IMG/VR virus record: IMGVR_UViG_2565956721_000004
Span: 1 to 31,930 of that record
Direction: 5' to 3' (one strand)
DNA from: a virus
Lineage: Duplodnaviria > Heunggongvirae > Uroviricota > Caudoviricetes
DNA: 31,930 bases
The position numbers were made by a program, and so were the translations under genes. The notes beneath the pieces were generated by a model, which searched no databases, was not told the DNA's origin, and saw only the letters and a program-made list of their open reading frames with translations. Positions 2,650-14,275 of the stretch are shown piece after piece (the stretch's first letter is position 1; each line of letters opens with the position of its first letter).

Positions 2650-3720
2650 ATGGCTAACGCCTGGCTCAGATTATGGCATGACATGCCAAATGACCCTAAG
2701 TGGCGAACAATTGCCAGGGTGTCAGGGCAGCCAATTGCAACAGTGATGGCAGTGTATATCCACCTCCTGGTGAGCGCGTCACGAAATGTCACGCGAGGTC
2801 ACATTGATGTCACGACAGAAGATTTGGCAAGTGCGCTCGACGTGACAGAAGAGGTAATTGATTCAATTTTGCAGACGATGCAGGGGCGGGTACTTGATGG
2901 TGATTTAATCACTGGATGGGAAAAACGCCAGGTGCTGAAAGAGGACAACGGCAATATTTCGCAAACCGCAAAATCTCCTGCAGAGCGCAAGAGGGCGCAG
3001 CGAGAGAGGGAAAAAATGCGGGAACAAAATGGCGATTGTCACGGCGCGTCACGAAATGTCACGCACATGTCACGACAAGTCACGACAGATAAAGATACAG
3101 ATAGAGATACAGATAAAGAAGATCAAAACACTATGGTCCATGGCGTAAAAAACGCCACGAACCATGTAGGGGATGTTCAGACCGTCACTCCTGGCCAGCC
3201 CGCAGGCACGACACCGGAAGCCGATTCAGCGTATGCGCTGAAAGCCGATTCGGGCGCTGTGCAGCAGGCGATGACCGCAGGGCCGGAGCAATCACACCAA
3301 CTGCAGCAGCCTGAAGCCGATTCCGCCATTCAGCGGGAAGCCGATCGGGTAGTCCCGGAAAACACCGGGCAGCCTGTGGGACGAGTGGATTATCCGGATG
3401 TGTTCGAACAGGTCTGGCGGGAATACCCGTTACGAGCCGGGGCAAACCCGAAGAAATCCGCTTTCAGTGCCTGGAAGGCCAGATTACGCGAGGGGGTGCC
3501 ACCAGAGGCCATGCTGGATGGTGTGAGGCGTTACACAAGATACCTAGCTGCTACCGGGAAAACGGGAACGGAATTTGTTCAGCGAGCGACGACGTTTTTT
3601 GGACCGGACCGGAATTTTGAAAACCCCTGGTTGCTCCCGGTAAGCGGCACGAACAACCAGCGTTGTGTTAATCATATTTCTGAACCGGACACCGAAATTC
3701 CGCCGGGATTCAGAGGGTAA
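2650..3720 (+). CDS. Phage replication initiator / replisome organizer (YdaU/DUF1376-like N-terminus) carrying internal origin iterons
   Basis: ATG at 2650 with AGAAGAGG RBS (track starts at GTG 2644). N-terminus AWLRLWHDMPNDPKWRTIA resembles replisome-organizer N-domains. Position after cro/ydaT is typical. Contains the iteron clusters listed below. Confidence 0.6.
   Translation: MANAWLRLWHDMPNDPKWRTIARVSGQPIATVMAVYIHLLVSASRNVTRGHIDVTTEDLASALDVTEEVIDSILQTMQGRVLDGDLITGWEKRQVLKEDNGNISQTAKSPAERKRAQREREKMREQNGDCHGASRNVTHMSRQVTTDKDTDRDTDKEDQNTMVHGVKNATNHVGDVQTVTPGQPAGTTPEADSAYALKADSGAVQQAMTAGPEQSHQLQQPEADSAIQREADRVVPENTGQPVGRVDYPDVFEQVWREYPLRAGANPKKSAFSAWKARLREGVPPEAMLDGVRRYTRYLAATGKTGTEFVQRATTFFGPDRNFENPWLLPVSGTNNQRCVNHISEPDTEIPPGFRG
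2774..2816. repeat. Iteron cluster 1: four GTCAC(G/A) repeats phased ~10-11 bp (2778, 2788, 2798, 2809)
   Basis: Read directly. The 21-mer GCGCGTCACGAAATGTCACGC (2774-2794) recurs identically at 3044-3064. Confidence 0.6.
3038..3125. repeat. Iteron cluster 2: five GTCACG repeats phased 10-11 bp (3038, 3048, 3058, 3069, 3079) followed by GATA-rich A/T stretch (3088-3125); candidate phage origin of replication
   Basis: Read directly. The architecture (helically phased iterons plus adjacent A/T-rich DNA inside the initiator gene) mirrors lambda ori inside gene O. Confidence 0.6.
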
Positions 3721-3757
3721 CAGATTTCAGGTCATGGGGTAATTTTCAGGAGGGCTT

Positions 3758-4174
3758 GTGGCAAAAGTTTTTACTCCCGAACTGCGGGAAGAAGTGAAGG
3801 CGCGCATTGTGGAACTGGTACGCAGAGATGGGCGAAAAACGCGTAAACAACTGGAAAATGAAACCGGGGCGACGAGACACCTGATAGAAGTTCTGGTGAA
3901 AGAGCTGGTAGTTAGTGGCGCAGTATATGGTTCAGGACATGGAATATTTCCTTCGGAGCAGGCTCGTAAGGACTGGGGAAAAGCCCGCAAAAAAATGTCG
4001 AGAGCGGCAGTGAAAAAGAAGAGCGACCCTGACCTGATTTATTCATTGCTAGATGGCGAAATACGCCGTTACAACAGACGACAGAATATAATTTGTCGCG
4101 AGTGTCGTCAGAGCGAAGTTATGCAGCGCATACTGGAATTTTATCAGGGAAATGTTCGGTATTTATTGAAGTGA
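3758..4174 (+). CDS. Hypothetical basic protein (possible replication/regulatory accessory)
   Basis: GTG start with strong AGGAGG RBS (3748-3753); 138 aa, Lys/Arg-rich; no recognisable catalytic motif. Confidence 0.5.
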   Translation: MAKVFTPELREEVKARIVELVRRDGRKTRKQLENETGATRHLIEVLVKELVVSGAVYGSGHGIFPSEQARKDWGKARKKMSRAAVKKKSDPDLIYSLLDGEIRRYNRRQNIICRECRQSEVMQRILEFYQGNVRYLLK

Positions 4175-4310
4175 CGAAATTAAAGAGCATTAGTTCAGAT
4201 ATTAATTGACACTTCGATGGCACAGGCCCAGACCTAGTCTGGTTGTCAGCTTTGAGCCAGGTGAACGTTGGTATCGTTAGTTTGTATTAATCAACGGAGA
4301 ATAGGCCAAA

Positions 4311-4340
4311 TGACTTTTCTTTGCTTCTTTTAATTATAAT
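4311..4340 (+). promoter_or_regulatory. Candidate promoter for the STAND gene: -35 TGACTT (4311-4316), 18-bp spacer, -10 TATAAT (4335-4340)
   Basis: Consensus -10 hexamer in an AT-rich 230-bp intergenic region upstream of 4409. Confidence 0.3.
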
Positions 4341-4408
4341 TCAAGTTCAATTGATTACATTGAAGTACTAATGTGAGTCCGTCAAACAAATAGCTCAAGG
4401 AATAGGCC

Positions 4409-7207
4409 ATGTGGGGAAGTGAAAACAAACAAAATCTGGACGTACTGGATCCTGTGCAGTTGGTGCGTATCGAAGCGGTACACCGGGGGTTCCTTTACCA
4501 GCATCTTTACGCTGTAGGCTGCTTACTTTTGGCGCAGAGGGCTGCTATGGACTCAGTAACTGTCGAGCTTGATGAGGATATTGAGCTGAAATCCAAACAG
4601 GAACGTCTCTACATTCAGGTTAAAACCCGTTCAAAACCTATTATGCCCAACGATGTGTCGGGGGCTCTGGAGCGATTTGTAAAGCTCAGAAATGAGCATA
4701 CTTCGGCAAACCGCGAAGGGGTGGCTTCTTTTGTGATTATTGTAAACCAGGCGCCTGGACCGCTGCTTCAGAAGATGATTGACGATAAAAAGCTTCCTTC
4801 TGATGTTCTTATTGTCTGGCCCCAGTCGATAGCTGGACGTCACCCGGCACTTCCGCCCGCATGGAGTACTCTGGCTGATGCGGCCACATGGTGTATCGCA
4901 GAAGCAGAAAAGCTGAAATTTTCACTATTGTCCCCAGAATCCTTGATTTGGAAGTTAGCAGGATTGGTTCAGCTTGCCGCCACCGGAGGCGATACCAATG
5001 GACAACATACGTTTTTCACGGAAGAACTTACTGAACTATTTGAACAGTTGATCGTTCAGCTACAGGACTTTCCTGCACCACCAGCACTGTACCGCCCACA
5101 AAACGAAGAACCTTCTCTCACATCTGGTGAGCGGATCCGTATCCTTTGTGGACTCTCAGGTGCAGGCAAGACAGCTTGGGCCGCACAGGCCGCATTACAC
5201 TCCACTGCACTTTGTGCTTATTACGACACCGGTGATCTTCCCGGTCCAGCTCTGGCCAGTACGCTGGTGCGCGAGATGGCTGCTAGATTTACAGCCCGTG
5301 ACCAAGACGGTTTGCGCAGGATTTTGCTCCCCGGTGCCAGTGGTTTTGAGGCTCTTAGGAGTTTTGATACCTACCTGAAAGAGCAGGGTACCACCTTGGT
5401 GCTGGTTCTGGATAACGCCCATCGTGTACCTGCGGAAAATCTACGGGATGTTCTGAATGCAACTACACATATTCGTTTTGTGCTGTTGTGCCAGCCTCAC
5501 GAAAACGTTCGCGAACTGGAGGTCATGACGGGGCTACAGCGCGAGGGCCTGCAGGGATGGAATCTCGATACGGTAGCTGTCGTTGTAAACGATATCGGAG
5601 GATTTGCCACCGCTATGGGATACGAGCAGCTACGGGCTTACACTGGTGGTCTTCCCCTGTATGTAGAGAGCGCCGCAAAAATCGCCGTTTCTGATTATGA
5701 GCGTAATGTCGATGCTCTGTGTGCTGAACTCCAGCAACAAACCCATACTGCGGAAACCGCCCAAGAAATTATTCTGTCACGTGTATTTCAGGGATTTGAA
5801 TCACTACTTCAGAGCGCGCTGGCATTGTTCAGTCTCTCTGACGTAGGGCTGAGTCGCGAAGAGATTTCTACGCTCCTAATCAATTCGCTGAACATTTCAC
5901 CAAGCAGTGCGGCTTCTTTAATTAGGAAAATGCGCGCTACTGGCACTATTGAAATTTATGGAAACCAGACCCTGAAGGTACATGATGCTGTCAGGGGGCT
6001 AGGACTGCAACATCTGGAACTGATGGATCAGGGTATATCGAACAAAGCGCTACTAGCGCTGAAAGACCTTTTAGTTGAAAGTCTTCATAATACCCGCAAT
6101 ACAAAACGGTTATCGTTGTTGACTCAACTTTATATTAAGCTCAATGATGTCACGACGTTGATCGAACTCTCAGGCCAAGAAATGTTTTATGAGATGGGCG
6201 TGACGGTCGACATTCTTGCAAGCTTGGAGCGTGCTGCAACATCGGACTTATTGGGACCTGTTCATAAATTCTGGGCATTGGATGGCCTTGTTTTCGTTGA
6301 GCTTAAAGACGGAATATCCGACCACATTGCTCAGAGGTTAAACATCATGGGAGCTTTACTTGCGGAGCACAAGTTCGGCTATCAAGAAGAGATGGCCTAT
6401 GCAATGAAACGAATGTTATTTTCGGCAGAAAGCAATGATGCACGAGAAGTTCAAAAGCTGGCACAGGAAGTCCGCCCCCAACTCCCAGATGAAGAACATA
6501 AACGCATCTTTGACTACAACCATGCCATTGCACTCTGGAGATTAAAAAAACTCAAGGATGCTGAAACATTAAGCTGTAATGTTATACAAGGGTACTATTC
6601 TTTATTTGGTATCACACCTGCTGATGTCATAGGAAAAAACGCCGACGCATTATGGAAAACTATTAATCATTCCGAAAATATGCAGGAACACTTTAAACAT
6701 ATGGCTGATGCTCTGGAGTTGCTGGCCAGAATTCGTGATGCGCAGGGAAAACTGTCACCATTACTGCGTATTCATTCGATGAAGTTCTACAATCTGGCCA
6801 TGGCCCCGGAATCCATGGTCAGGGTGGGCCAAGATCTGGCGGATGAGTTTGTTGCCATAAAGGATTACGACGGTGCCAAGGAAGTCATGGAGCAACATGT
6901 CCTGCCGGTTGTCAATGAGGCAGGTCTAGTACATCGACTGATTCAGGTTCGAAGCCAATACGCAGTCATATTGGCACTATCGGGTCAGCATAAAGCAGCT
7001 GATGTCGAAATGCAGCGCCTTGCTCCCTATATCGAAGGCCTCACAGGTGTACAGCGTCAAGAAATCCAAAATCAATCAAATTACATCGTACAGCTTGCCC
7101 ATAAAGCAGCAAAGACTAAATTAACTGAAGTTTTTGGTGCGGTCGGCCGGAATGAACAATGCCCCTGTGGCTCGGGAATAAAGTACAAAAAATGTCACGG
7201 TGCCTGA
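4409..7207 (+). CDS. STAND-type P-loop NTPase with N-terminal Mrr-like nuclease-type domain, TPR-like helical C-terminal region and terminal SEC-C zinc motif (candidate antiphage sensor)
   Basis: 932-aa ORF with AAGGA RBS. Motifs read from the translation: D55...Q70-V-K72 (hhhQxK, Mrr/PD-(D/E)xK-like); Walker A G248-LSGAGKT255 (nt 5150-5173); Walker B L330-VLVLDN336; GLPL motif 414-417 (NB-ARC/STAND hallmark); long helical repeat region; C918-P-C920-GSGIKYKK-C929-H930 (SEC-C type). Fold and function are inferred. Confidence 0.85.
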   Translation: MWGSENKQNLDVLDPVQLVRIEAVHRGFLYQHLYAVGCLLLAQRAAMDSVTVELDEDIELKSKQERLYIQVKTRSKPIMPNDVSGALERFVKLRNEHTSANREGVASFVIIVNQAPGPLLQKMIDDKKLPSDVLIVWPQSIAGRHPALPPAWSTLADAATWCIAEAEKLKFSLLSPESLIWKLAGLVQLAATGGDTNGQHTFFTEELTELFEQLIVQLQDFPAPPALYRPQNEEPSLTSGERIRILCGLSGAGKTAWAAQAALHSTALCAYYDTGDLPGPALASTLVREMAARFTARDQDGLRRILLPGASGFEALRSFDTYLKEQGTTLVLVLDNAHRVPAENLRDVLNATTHIRFVLLCQPHENVRELEVMTGLQREGLQGWNLDTVAVVVNDIGGFATAMGYEQLRAYTGGLPLYVESAAKIAVSDYERNVDALCAELQQQTHTAETAQEIILSRVFQGFESLLQSALALFSLSDVGLSREEISTLLINSLNISPSSAASLIRKMRATGTIEIYGNQTLKVHDAVRGLGLQHLELMDQGISNKALLALKDLLVESLHNTRNTKRLSLLTQLYIKLNDVTTLIELSGQEMFYEMGVTVDILASLERAATSDLLGPVHKFWALDGLVFVELKDGISDHIAQRLNIMGALLAEHKFGYQEEMAYAMKRMLFSAESNDAREVQKLAQEVRPQLPDEEHKRIFDYNHAIALWRLKKLKDAETLSCNVIQGYYSLFGITPADVIGKNADALWKTINHSENMQEHFKHMADALELLARIRDAQGKLSPLLRIHSMKFYNLAMAPESMVRVGQDLADEFVAIKDYDGAKEVMEQHVLPVVNEAGLVHRLIQVRSQYAVILALSGQHKAADVEMQRLAPYIEGLTGVQRQEIQNQSNYIVQLAHKAAKTKLTEVFGAVGRNEQCPCGSGIKYKKCHGA

Positions 7208-7484
7208 GTCTTTGTACGACCATGCGGGCCTTATTGTCTTGCTATTGCTCTTATGGTTCGCCTTTCTGATTGATTTCATATTGGCGAGGTGACGGGAGTT
7301 AAGTAGAATGGCTGCGGGTGCTTGAGGCTATCTGTCTCAGGCATGAACACCAAAGGCAGATAGAGAAAAGCCCCAGTTAACATTACGCGTCCTGCAAGAC
7401 GCTTAACATTAATCTGAGGCTCAATCTATGAACGGCAAATCTAGGTTAGCCTCTTACGTGCCGAAAGGCAAGGAGAAGCAGGCT

Positions 7485-7640
7485 ATGAAGCAGCAAAAGG
7501 CGATGTTAATCGCCCTGATCGTCATCTGTTTAACCGTCATTGTGACGGCACTGGTAACGAGGAAAGACCTCTGCGAGGTACGAATCCGAACCGGCCAGAC
7601 GGAGGTCGCTGTCTTCACAGCTTACGAACCTGAGGAGTAA
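7485..7640 (+). CDS. hokD: Hok/Gef-family type I toxin (HokD/RelF-like), with overlapping upstream mok-like frame starting 7428
   Basis: 51 aa MKQQKAMLIALIVICLTVIVTALVTRKDLCEVRIRTGQTEVAVFTAYEPEE: single transmembrane helix plus conserved Hok C-terminal motif; matches HokD as I recall it. Confidence 0.8.
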   Translation: MKQQKAMLIALIVICLTVIVTALVTRKDLCEVRIRTGQTEVAVFTAYEPEE

Positions 7641-7708
7641 GAGACCTGGCGGGGGAGAAATCCCTCGCCACCTCTGATGTGTCAGGCATCCTCAACGCAC
7701 CCGCACTT

Positions 7709-7728
7709 AACCCGCTTCGGCGTTTTTT
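7709..7728 (+). terminator. Short GC hairpin (CCGCTTCGGCG) + T6 after hok
   Basis: Read directly; stem is short, so strength is uncertain. Confidence 0.35.
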
Positions 7729-7783
7729 CCGTTGATTAACTCTAGTTATTAGAGAACCGAACTTTTATTGATGGGGCAGGGAG

Positions 7784-8176
7784 ATGAAGAAACTTGTTTT
7801 AGTCGCAGGTGTAATGATTGCAACAGTAATGTTGGGAGGGTGTGCAGCAAAGGTCGATCCAGCGTTGAAAGCAGAAGCAATGAAGCCACTAACATGTAAT
7901 GATGAAAAGCAATGTGACTTTTATTGGAAACGAGCGCAATTCTGGTTGGCTAATAATTCCTCATGGAAAATTCAAACGGCGACAGACACGCTAATTTCCA
8001 CTTATAATCCCTCTCCAAATAGTCCATTCCTCGCTTATCAAGTGAGTAAAATGCCAAATGAAGATGGATCCTCAAGAATTTTCATCAAGCCTTTTTGCGA
8101 TAATATGTTTGGCTGTCAACCAAACCCCTATCAGGCAGTTGTTTCCTTTAAAAACTTCGTTAAAACAGGGCAGTAG
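7784..8176 (+). CDS. Secreted lipoprotein of unknown function (cargo; possible superinfection-exclusion factor)
   Basis: GGGCAGGGAG RBS; signal peptide with lipobox MLGG-C (MKKLVLVAGVMIATVMLGGC); four further Cys in the mature part. Not part of the Qin backbone as I recall it. Confidence 0.6.
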   Translation: MKKLVLVAGVMIATVMLGGCAAKVDPALKAEAMKPLTCNDEKQCDFYWKRAQFWLANNSSWKIQTATDTLISTYNPSPNSPFLAYQVSKMPNEDGSSRIFIKPFCDNMFGCQPNPYQAVVSFKNFVKTGQ

Positions 8177-11073: not shown

Positions 11074-11149
11074 GGCCCTTTAGCTCAGTGGTGAGAGCGA
11101 GCGACTCATAATCGCCAGGTCGCTGGTTCAAATCCAGCAAGGGCCACCA
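11074..11149 (+). tRNA. tRNA-Ile2 (anticodon CAU, ileX-like; formally could decode Met)
   Basis: Cloverleaf folded by hand: acceptor GGCCCTT/AAGGGCC, anticodon loop CTCATAA, T-loop TTCAAAT, 3' CCA; close to E. coli ileX as recalled. Confidence 0.8.
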
Positions 11150-11150
11150 A

Positions 11151-11227
11151 CCGCCACTAGCTCATCAGGAAAGAGCGTCAACCCTTTAAGTTGAGTGTGC
11201 GAGGTTCGAGTCCCCGGTGGCGGTCCA
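11151..11227 (+). tRNA. Atypical tRNA-like gene, anticodon UUU (Lys) with C at position 33 and 5'-CC start
   Basis: Hand fold: acceptor CCGCCAC/GTGGCGG, U8, D-loop with GG, anticodon stem TCAAC/GTTGA with loop CCTTTAA, T-loop TTCGAGT (one A-C mismatch in T-stem), CCA end. It is only 1-2 nt from its neighbours. Confidence 0.5.
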
Positions 11228-11229
11228 GT

Positions 11230-11305
<76 letters not shown>

Positions 11306-11308
11306 TAT

Positions 11309-11383
<75 letters not shown>

Positions 11384-13735: not shown

Positions 13736-14275
13736 TTAGAAACTGCGTGGAGCTGTGGAAAGAATGGATGCCAGTTCTTCCTTCGATAAATCCCAGCTTC
13801 GATTTACAGCGTCAATTTTCTTAAACTCATCAAGCATTGCGTTATAGAGATGTTCTGTACGTGAATGAGTATTGGCAATGGGCTGTTTCTGTTCGGGGAA
13901 GCGATCAATTTTCTGATATGCCTCAATGATACTGAAGTAATCGCATTCATTATTACCGTCGAAACCTGGGAGCTGAATTGCCCCATCATGTATTTTTAGA
14001 TGATGGTCACGGACTAATTCTTTTTGCTCGTCATCACTAAGTTTCCTGAAAGCATTGGAAAGTCCGCGATACATATTCAAGACAGCAGTAACAAAATCAC
14101 GATCTTCTTTACTTGGTTCGTCAACATCCAAATGTGAATATTCGGCCTTGATAACCCAATCATTACCAGATGACACAGCATATTTAACAAGCTGTGGATC
14201 AATATCAGTTTCGATACCTAGGTGGATGGCAATGTCACATAACAAAATGGTATTGATTTTATCTTTAATATCCAT
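13736..14275 (-). CDS. YfbU-family (UPF0304-like) protein, antisense moron between lysis and packaging modules
   Basis: 179 aa, GAGGGT RBS; resembles E. coli YfbU in LPGFDGNNECDYF...THSRTEHLYNAMLDEF versus YfbU FLGFDAATEARY...THGFNAQTPMWEKY (recalled); opposite orientation to all neighbours. Confidence 0.55.
   Translation of the reverse strand: MDIKDKINTILLCDIAIHLGIETDIDPQLVKYAVSSGNDWVIKAEYSHLDVDEPSKEDRDFVTAVLNMYRGLSNAFRKLSDDEQKELVRDHHLKIHDGAIQLPGFDGNNECDYFSIIEAYQKIDRFPEQKQPIANTHSRTEHLYNAMLDEFKKIDAVNRSWDLSKEELASILSTAPRSF

Follow-up and report, generated by a model that had tools for sequence, protein, structure and literature searches.

A predicted Cap4–STAND–TPR-like protein with a SecA-type zinc tail, a candidate antiviral receptor carried by a lambdoid prophage

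Gene and module organization

The window analyzed here is a 31,930-nucleotide stretch of viral DNA (Caudoviricetes; IMG/VR record IMGVR_UViG_2565956721_000004, considered at its full length), in which positions 4409–7207 encode a 932-residue protein with the motifs of a STAND-type NTPase. An initial annotation had described this gene, referred to below as the STAND gene, as a candidate undescribed single-gene antiphage sensor carried as prophage cargo, with a nuclease head, a STAND NTPase, helical repeats, and a SEC-C zinc tail. The gene and the modules assigned to its product are as follows.

4409–7207, + strand: complete STAND gene, a single ATG-initiated open reading frame (ORF) of 932 amino acids; product identical to WP_023352600.1
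4475–5053, + strand: predicted Cap4/DUF4297-type PD-(D/E)xK nuclease domain, approximately residues 23–215
5129–5608, + strand: nucleotide-binding domain, approximately residues 241–400, with Walker A GLSGAGKT (248–255) and Walker B LVLVLDN (330–336)
5609–6028, + strand: helical domain and winged-helix domain, approximately residues 401–540, with the GxP motif YTGGLPLYV (411–419) and K523-V-H525-D526 at the end
6029–7135, + strand: all-helical TPR-like repeat region of about 370 residues (approximately 541–909), the presumed ligand sensor
7136–7204, + strand: flexible linker and SecA-type SEC-C zinc-binding tail VGRNEQCPCGSGIKYKKCHGA (Pfam SEC-C, PF02810, 38.8 bits), modeled with low predicted local distance difference test (pLDDT) values

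A script check located VELDEDIELK at residues 52–61, LYIQVKTR at 67–74 (these two segments holding D55, Q70, and K72), GLSGAGKT at 248–255, LVLVLDN at 330–336, GLPL at 414–417, and CPCGSGIKYKKCHG at 918–931, so that the ORF and every motif position in the initial annotation are correct. Conservation was judged from an alignment of 36 homologs reaching down to 49% identity. In this alignment, E53, D55, D57, E59, Q70, and K72 of the head are invariant, as are G248, G253, K254, T255, D335, N336, G414, and P416 of the NTPase. By Pfam score, SEC-C (residues 914–931, 38.8 versus 20.4 bits), AAA_22 (239–364, 34.7 versus 27), and Cap4_nuclease (25–77, 27.1 versus 26.2, or 29.1 for the isolated domain) lie above the curated cut-offs, while AAA_16 scores below its own. 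Scans of the protein against NCBIfam and PHROGs gave no family-level match. Since the motifs are invariant or conserved in 36 homologs and the Pfam scores lie above the curated cut-offs, they are more than chance strings.

The AlphaFold2 model computed on the 36-sequence alignment (mean pLDDT 79) comprises, in order, an α/β head, a Rossmann-like NTPase, a five-helix domain with the GxP motif, a winged helix, 18 helices, and a low-confidence tail. The five-helix domain spans residues 402–474, and the winged helix is a helix–helix–hairpin at 483–524 with strands at 514–517 and 521–524. The best Foldseek match of the model is the archaeal STAND protein PH0952, with an E-value of 5e-13 over 730 columns. 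All the hallmarks of the STAND superfamily are present, namely a P-loop NTPase with Walker A and B, a helical domain with GxP, a winged-helix histidine, and likeness of fold. Profiles, model, and conservation thus predict that the protein is a fusion of a Cap4-type nuclease, a STAND NTPase, and a TPR-like sensor, followed by a SEC-C tail, and apart from the label of the head the module order of the initial annotation was right.

Walker A is kept in 208 of 218 full-length homologs. The invariant residues K523, H525, and D526 directly follow the winged-helix hairpin (514–524), and the K523-V-H525-D526 segment resembles the MHD motif of STAND proteins; the motifs listed in the initial annotation stand, and this one had been overlooked. 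H525 presumably contacts the nucleotide. The invariant R378 is a possible sensor-1 arginine, at a spacing of 43 residues from Walker B compared with 37 in SeAvs7. Most STAND proteins carry a second acidic residue in Walker B. The invariant D335-N336 pair, in place of D-D/E, suggests that the domain would bind nucleotide with little hydrolysis.

The head had been labeled as Mrr-like. Mrr_cat gave no match at E≤1 in the Pfam scan of the protein, nor among 19 diverse heads, and the Mrr assignment was ruled out. As the Cap4 score of the window protein is marginal, a head profile was built from the N-terminal 220 residues of these 19 members, and Cap4_nuclease (PF14130) is the sole Pfam family matched by all 19. 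The head is thus of the Cap4/DUF4297 type instead. A PADLOC scan of the whole protein (E≤1) matched LmuA, DUF4297, and HamA to the head, and E2 and PDC-S12 to the tail. Searched against PDB sequences, the head-only profile found the solved Hachiman HamA and Lamassu LmuA weakly, and aligned GF-YQ, E-x-x-x-D-I-E-I, and QVK with both, the QVK motif being the same in HamA and LmuA. Structural comparison of the modeled head matched SeAvs3 (12.4), LmuA (12.2), Acinetobacter baumannii Cap4 (11.7), HamA (11.3), and Enterobacter cloacae Cap4 (10.8). The invariant residues of the head are H25, Y30-Q31-H32, E53, D55, D57, E59, and Q70-x-K72, and the nuclease signature is kept in 209 of 218 full-length homologs. 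The positions and invariance of the D55...Q70-x-K72 pattern therefore stand, whereas the aspartate common to the head, HamA, and LmuA in the profile alignments is D57, D55 being specific to the STAND family. Effector swapping left no sign within the searched range, where the alignments of nearly all the 150 best representatives start at residue ~10, and this absence of alternative effectors sets the family apart from some Avs families.

The sensor is modeled as 18 consecutive helices, mostly at pLDDT 85–96. Structure comparison matched its fold to generic TPR proteins only (PlcR, APC5, KLC, and Rap). It is the most divergent module, with 44–46% identity in the most distant aligned members compared with 51–67% for the nucleotide-binding domain.

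In the tail, the zinc ligands C918, C920, C929, and H930 are each at least 90% conserved in the alignment, and the tail is its best-conserved short segment (mean column identity 0.78). The last 21 residues are identical at 16 of 20 positions to the Escherichia coli SecA zinc domain (nuclear magnetic resonance structure 1sx0) and at 17 of 21 to the Haemophilus influenzae SecA peptide crystallized on SecB (1ozb). PDB sequence searches with the protein and with the 36-sequence profile matched only SecA, YchJ, and other SEC-C zinc motifs. Of 219 full-length homologs, 170 (about 78%) have the tail, and the remaining ~22% end just past the last sensor helix. Most tail-less members have a tail-bearing nearest neighbor, some at 88–92% identity over the first 880 residues, and a scan of one genome per species also contains a coherent tail-less group, mainly of Alphaproteobacteria. 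Tail-less members occur in Pseudomonas, Pseudoalteromonas, and many Alphaproteobacteria, and tail-bearing ones in Sporomusa and in Obscuribacterales/Cyanobacteriota metagenome-assembled genomes (MAGs). Because about 22% of the full-length homologs do without it, often beside a close tail-bearing relative, the tail appears to be an ancestral, optional, and repeatedly lost modulator, an accessory rather than a core part. Judged from the taxa rather than from the presence of SecB itself, this distribution gives no support for a strictly SecB-dependent role. Tail-less members occur in SecB-bearing Proteobacteria, and the tail pattern is not known to follow the distribution of SecB.

Family distribution and genomic setting

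A word-indexed search retrieved 935 relatives. The best 120 of these 935 are almost all 927–944 residues long, come from Enterobacterales, Vibrio, Shewanella, Aeromonas, Pseudomonas, and Betaproteobacteria, and are annotated merely as "SEC-C metal-binding domain-containing", "dsDNA nuclease domain-containing", or "ATP-binding" proteins. An exhaustive search of 50%-identity representatives gave 732 clusters at E≤1e-3 and 285 at E≤1e-30, with full-length alignments extending down to ~29% identity. The one-genome-per-species scan gave 235 loci, distributed over Gamma-, Beta-, and Alphaproteobacteria, Desulfobacterota MAGs, Sporomusa, and Obscuribacterales/Cyanobacteriota MAGs. Two proteins from Desulfobacula and Desulfobacterium MAGs (L032 and L034) share 65–69% identity with the E. 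coli protein, more than many homologs from Gammaproteobacteria do. This likeness would indicate horizontal transfer, recent and between phyla, or MAG contamination.

Among 5,426 complete E. coli genomes, 16 carry the STAND gene, always on the chromosome. In one E. coli genome (NZ_OZ546984.1, 361511–365562), the gene is split by an insertion of the IS3-family element ISEc52, and the 90% cluster of the protein includes several truncated copies of 194–530 amino acids; the gene is therefore occasionally inactivated. Two genomes hold two family copies each, Pseudomonas sp. MPB23 (L028 and L029) and Sphingopyxis sp. H053 (L094 and L095, ~74 kb apart on one contig), which may be duplicated elements or paralogous receptors.

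In E. coli AR_0089, the prophage that carries the STAND gene is lambdoid and Qin/Rac-like, with tRNA-Ser and mtfA beside its integration site. The gene is flanked by the replication-region DUF977 gene and by hokD/sok, with DUF968, rusA, and Q downstream. The right flank in the window is the following.

7316–7640, + strand: hokD/sok type I toxin–antitoxin module, directly downstream of the STAND gene (Rfam sok, 110 bits; hokD annotated)

The hokD/sok module is the conserved right flank of the slot in sister prophages with other cargo and is not part of the STAND system. In these prophages, the interval between DUF977 and hokD holds QueH, a string of small ead/Ea22-type genes, or uncharacterized genes with integrase remnants; in a fourth relative, chromosomal genes begin after DUF977. 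Since the flanks are the same and the contents differ, the DUF977-to-hokD interval is a variable cargo position, which bears out the view of the gene as prophage cargo. On viral contigs in IMG/VR, 10 loci carry a relative, and eight of the 10 are the same prophage gene or close variants. A tblastn search of 50,697 GenBank phage records gave two distant matches.

No neighbor is conserved across the E. coli, Vibrio, Pseudomonas, Yersinia, Enterobacter, and Providencia loci, and the gene therefore acts alone, as the initial annotation had supposed in calling it a single-gene system. Defense genes, identified by their Pfam domain names, lie within 5 kb in all five non-E. coli neighborhoods inspected (Gabija, AbiH, AbiGi, or TIR). 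A Gabija pair, consisting of a GajA-like OLD-TOPRIM ATPase and a UvrD helicase, adjoins the STAND gene in Vibrio cholerae, Yersinia enterocolitica, and Enterobacter hormaechei. The neighboring genes at the homologous loci are given below in the coordinates of each locus.

V. cholerae L002, 3754–7778, same strand as the STAND gene: Gabija pair (by Pfam names)
L006, 4511–7655, and L011/L013/L014, 4512–7656 (Yersinia, Enterobacter), divergent: Gabija pair, with ~345 bp intergenic in both
Pseudomonas L003, 10860–11762; L004, 8882–9784; L005, 7307–8014, same strand: AbiH-domain gene 60 bp after the STAND gene, in a metal-resistance island
Vibrio L002, 2465–3424: AbiH gene two genes away from the STAND gene
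Providencia rettgeri L015/L016, 7767–7973, same strand: 68-residue gene of the XRE type with a helix-turn-helix (HTH), ending 28 bp upstream of the STAND gene

The recurrence of Gabija suggests a co-transferred two-system block, and the vicinity of AbiH could be a functional pairing or mere packing within islands. The Providencia locus further contains AbiGi and other conflict-system domains, the Enterobacter locus a TIR/SEFIR protein, and a PIN domain is found nearby among the inspected loci. The XRE-type gene of Providencia has no counterpart at the E. coli locus and may regulate transcription locally.

Relation to known systems and proposed mode of action

Table S1 of Lee et al. (Nature 657:735, 2026) lists WP_021564393.1 from Escherichia as STAND seed #193, and the NTPase of this protein (residues 227–435, 209 amino acids) differs from that of the window protein at one position. 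The seeds comprise known defense STANDs together with BLAST finds made with known STANDs and with Cap4, Mrr, Trypco2, and MBL effectors; WP_021564393.1 was gathered as a Cap4- or Mrr-bearing STAND (Lee et al. 2026). Its presence in Table S1 means that the family is already catalogued bioinformatically and possibly already tested, as representatives of ~30 further sensor clusters were cloned with a preference for Enterobacteriaceae, and Avs8 and Avs10–24 were named, including EcAvs19, 22, 23, and 24 (Lee et al. 2026). The description of the sensor as undescribed is thus overtaken by its near-identical relative among the seeds, and the protein does not represent a new architecture class. Among searchable papers, none mentions the accession WP_023352600 or WP_021564393, and the TerI prophage paper and the Avs2 paper of Bechon have no bearing on the protein.

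As in the Avs class, an N-terminal effector, a STAND NTPase, and a C-terminal repeat sensor lie on one polypeptide, and the gene is associated with known defense systems or mobile elements. With the NTPase boundary of Lee et al. (227–435), 497 residues follow the NTPase domain, compared with their cut-off of at least 400. The checks suggested in the initial annotation gave a divided outcome: PADLOC returned no Avs model; the profiles confirmed Cap4, AAA_22, and SEC-C and not Mrr_cat; and structural comparison related the head to SeAvs3 and the sensor to generic TPR proteins. In PADLOC-DB v2, the hidden Markov models of Avs1–5 (AVAST I–V), which share the logic of a STAND with an effector and the defense-island habitat, failed to match the 932-residue protein at E≤1. 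No detectable sequence relation beyond generic motifs links it to Avs7 (SeAvs7 of Salmonella enterica) or Avs3 (SeAvs3, PDB 8DGC), and the PDB profile search finds no Avs protein. The window protein is also smaller, with 932 residues versus 2,028 in the SeAvs3 chain and ~1,400 in SeAvs7, the latter value being inferred from the mass of the complex. Its sensor does not appear specifically similar to the terminase-binding sensor of Avs3 or the bilobed, MCP-binding sensor of Avs7, and a SecA-type zinc tail is added.

Cap4 in CBASS, LmuA in Lamassu, HamA in Hachiman, and DUF4297 in HerA-DUF4297 have the same nuclease fold and signature as the head. Control of these nucleases lies with a SAVED domain or with a separate partner protein (SMC-like LmuB, the helicase HamB, or HerA), whereas here the nuclease is fused to a STAND NTPase. 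Membership in Lamassu or Hachiman was ruled out, the neighbors being DUF977 and hokD, with no LmuB or HamB partner gene at the locus or conserved elsewhere. PH0952 (PDB 6MFV), an archaeal STAND-TPR protein, and MalT, a transcription factor, have neither the nuclease effector nor the zinc tail. The tail itself has near-identical counterparts in the CxC-x8-C-H knuckles of the SecA C-terminal metal-binding domain, YecA, and YchJ, which also stand at the extreme C-terminus on a flexible linker; in those proteins the knuckle belongs to a translocation ATPase or chaperone, and here to an immune-type STAND.

SEC-C motifs are also C-terminal in the PADLOC models E2, E1-E2, and PDC-S12, and stand at the N-terminus of the lactococcal antiphage protein Rugutis, which is unrelated to the STAND family; the motif therefore recurs in defense proteins. 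Literature searches found no discussion of SEC-C on a STAND defense protein, Rugutis being the only case in defense, and no study of a role of the SecA-like tail in immunity. Neither "zinc" nor "SecC" appears in the main text of Lee et al. (Nature 2026). The suggestion that SEC-C on a STAND may be a new architecture may hold with respect to discussion in the literature and fails as a new architecture class, the family having been catalogued already.

We consider it likely that the gene encodes a single-protein antiviral STAND receptor of the Avs type, resembling nucleotide-binding leucine-rich repeat receptors (NLR-like), and that it is accessory cargo of the lambdoid prophage. The observations behind this reading are the domain identities, the fold, the motif conservation, the stand-alone gene, the cargo position, and the defense-island neighbors, together with the patchy distribution of the gene and the near-identical protein among the curated STAND seeds. 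The trigger, oligomeric state, nuclease activity, and abortive outcome are proposed by analogy with Avs3, Avs4, and Avs7. The steps transferred from Avs3 and Avs4 follow a mechanism reportedly described by Gao and colleagues in 2022. At rest, the protein would be an ADP-bound, autoinhibited monomer, in which H525 holds the nucleotide and the Cap4-type head is inactive. Upon infection by another phage, the TPR-like sensor (residues ~541–909) would bind a conserved, monomeric phage protein. Binding would open the NTPase, allow exchange of ADP for ATP with the participation of K254 and D335, and lead to oligomerization, probably into a tetramer. The oligomer would gather the Cap4/DUF4297 heads (E53/D57/Q70/K72), which would then cut dsDNA without sequence specificity, so that phage replication would be halted and the infected cell sacrificed. 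With its D-N Walker B, the NTPase may serve as a binding-driven switch with little ATP turnover, and the SecA-like zinc tail on its flexible linker may be an optional modulator outside this core machine. Cap4-STAND-TPR proteins such as SeAvs7 act as trigger-activated receptors of the proposed kind (Lee et al. 2026). The phage terminase or portal named as trigger in the initial annotation was a guess, the sensor showing generic TPR likeness only.

Several points weigh against this assignment. Literature searches found no experimental evidence on the STAND family, and no PADLOC Avs model or NCBIfam family matches the protein, so that membership in a named Avs family is unproven. The sensor has no specific structural match to a characterized Avs sensor, including that of Avs3. 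The Cap4 score of the window protein is barely above the cut-off (27.1 versus 26.2 bits), and the acidic position of (D/E)xK is occupied by Q70. Q variants of this motif are active in Mrr-type enzymes. The gene is also rare on viral contigs (the 10 IMG/VR loci, eight of them the same prophage gene or close variants), and carriage as prophage cargo is therefore a local habit rather than a property of the family.

The tail raises the question of whether a host factor takes part. It would be rather unlikely, in our estimate, for the SecA-type tail to act as a host-factor adaptor that tethers the receptor to the ribosome exit region or SecB, where the sensor would sample phage proteins as they are made, or where the host factor would join the active complex. 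Another reading, which we regard as improbable, makes the protein a guard and not a direct receptor of phage proteins: its tail would dock on a host factor that binds the SecA tail (the ribosome or SecB), and a phage-induced change there would activate it, or the host factor would be a co-receptor, as EF-Tu is for Avs7. The close identity of the tail to SecA sequences (16 of 20 with the E. coli zinc domain and 17 of 21 with the SecB-bound peptide), its rank as the best-conserved short segment (0.78), and its position on a low-confidence, presumably flexible linker speak for such docking. The SecA metal-binding domain is reported to bind SecB and ribosomes (10.1101/613315), and precedents for the use of host factors, EF-Tu by Avs7 and DnaJ by bNACHT25, are reported or cited by Lee et al. 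(2026). However, the core function survives in the ~22% of full-length homologs that are tail-less, often with a tail-bearing relative at 88–92%. The size and conservation of the TPR sensor speak for its having its own ligand, and the tail pattern across taxa is not known to follow SecB.

A role for the gene within the prophage itself, as a STAND-type regulator or DNA-processing factor controlling replication or recombination in parallel with MalT, would agree with its position after the replication genes, and is nevertheless very unlikely. The output domain is a Cap4-type nuclease and not a DNA-binding HTH; sister prophages lack the gene or have unrelated genes in the slot, so that it is dispensable for the phage; and most homologs are outside prophages, in islands beside Gabija, AbiH, or AbiGi. 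We give equally little credence to a decaying remnant, in which a hitch-hiking gene encodes a catalytically dead nuclease. Such a view could draw on the unusual variants Q70 (for E/D) and N336 in Walker B, on the IS3-family insertion in one E. coli genome, and on the truncated copies in the 90% cluster. Q70 and N336, however, do not vary in any of the 36 aligned sequences (down to 49% identity), the full 932-residue length is kept from Enterobacterales to Betaproteobacteria, and HamA and LmuA carry the same QVK; the invariance and the retained length mark a functional protein under purifying selection.

Should its activity be confirmed, the antiviral receptor would enlarge the growing set of bacterial NLR-like receptors by a further family. 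These families differ from one another in the conserved phage protein that they report on, and the trigger of this one would therefore extend the map of the surveyed phage proteome. Another Cap4-STAND-TPR receptor in a prophage would be no surprise to a specialist, and the remaining interest lies in the tail and the trigger. Small, portable, often lost, and present on other defense proteins too, the SecA-like tail is the one feature that could teach something new. Were the adaptor role true, the protein would be the third bacterial NLR-like receptor to co-opt the translation or chaperone machinery, after Avs7 with EF-Tu and bNACHT25 with DnaJ, and the tail could be a general accessory module of bacterial immunity, SEC-C also being on other defense proteins. 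The gene also illustrates that Qin/Rac-type prophages have, behind their replication genes, a cargo slot that merits mining.

Upstream region and other features of the window

Two features precede the STAND gene.

4175–4408, + strand: spacer of 234 bp between the DUF977 gene and the STAND gene, AT-rich (37.6% GC)
4310–4333, + strand: mini-ORF of seven codons, MTFLCFF*, opened by a duplicated Shine–Dalgarno (SD)/start sequence and stopping just before TATAAT

The AT-rich upstream region noted in the initial annotation is real, and its candidate promoter has a mixed record: a perfect TATAAT was found by eye at 4335–4340, with a weak −35 element ATGACT at a spacing of 19 nt, and a strict scan for σ70 promoters and terminators over 3700–7800 returned nothing in the spacer. 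A promoter of the gene's own is plausible from these letters. The SD/start context of the STAND gene, AAGGAATAGGCCATG (4398–4411), has a duplicate ~100 bp upstream, GGAGAATAGGCCAAATG (within 4296–4333), which opens the mini-ORF. The duplication may have been left by recombination at the edge of the cargo, or the mini-ORF may encode a leader peptide. Upstream regions of homologs from four genera do not align and share no leader with the E. coli locus, and the duplicated SD with its mini-ORF is therefore local to E. coli.

Between the lysis genes and the terminase, a 179-residue ORF (13736–14275, − strand) contains a YfbU domain (Pfam, 6.5e-12), which is also a domain of the lactococcal antiphage protein Kamadhenu; by this likeness, it may be a second defense-type cargo gene of the same prophage. 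The dicB/ydf region contains the DicF antisense RNA (175–226, − strand; Rfam, 71.5 bits). Downstream of Q, four phage-borne tRNA genes (11074–11383, + strand) encode Lys-UUU, Thr-UGU, Gly-UCC, and a tRNA with a CAT anticodon, the last being assigned to Ile by PGAP and to Met by ARAGORN.

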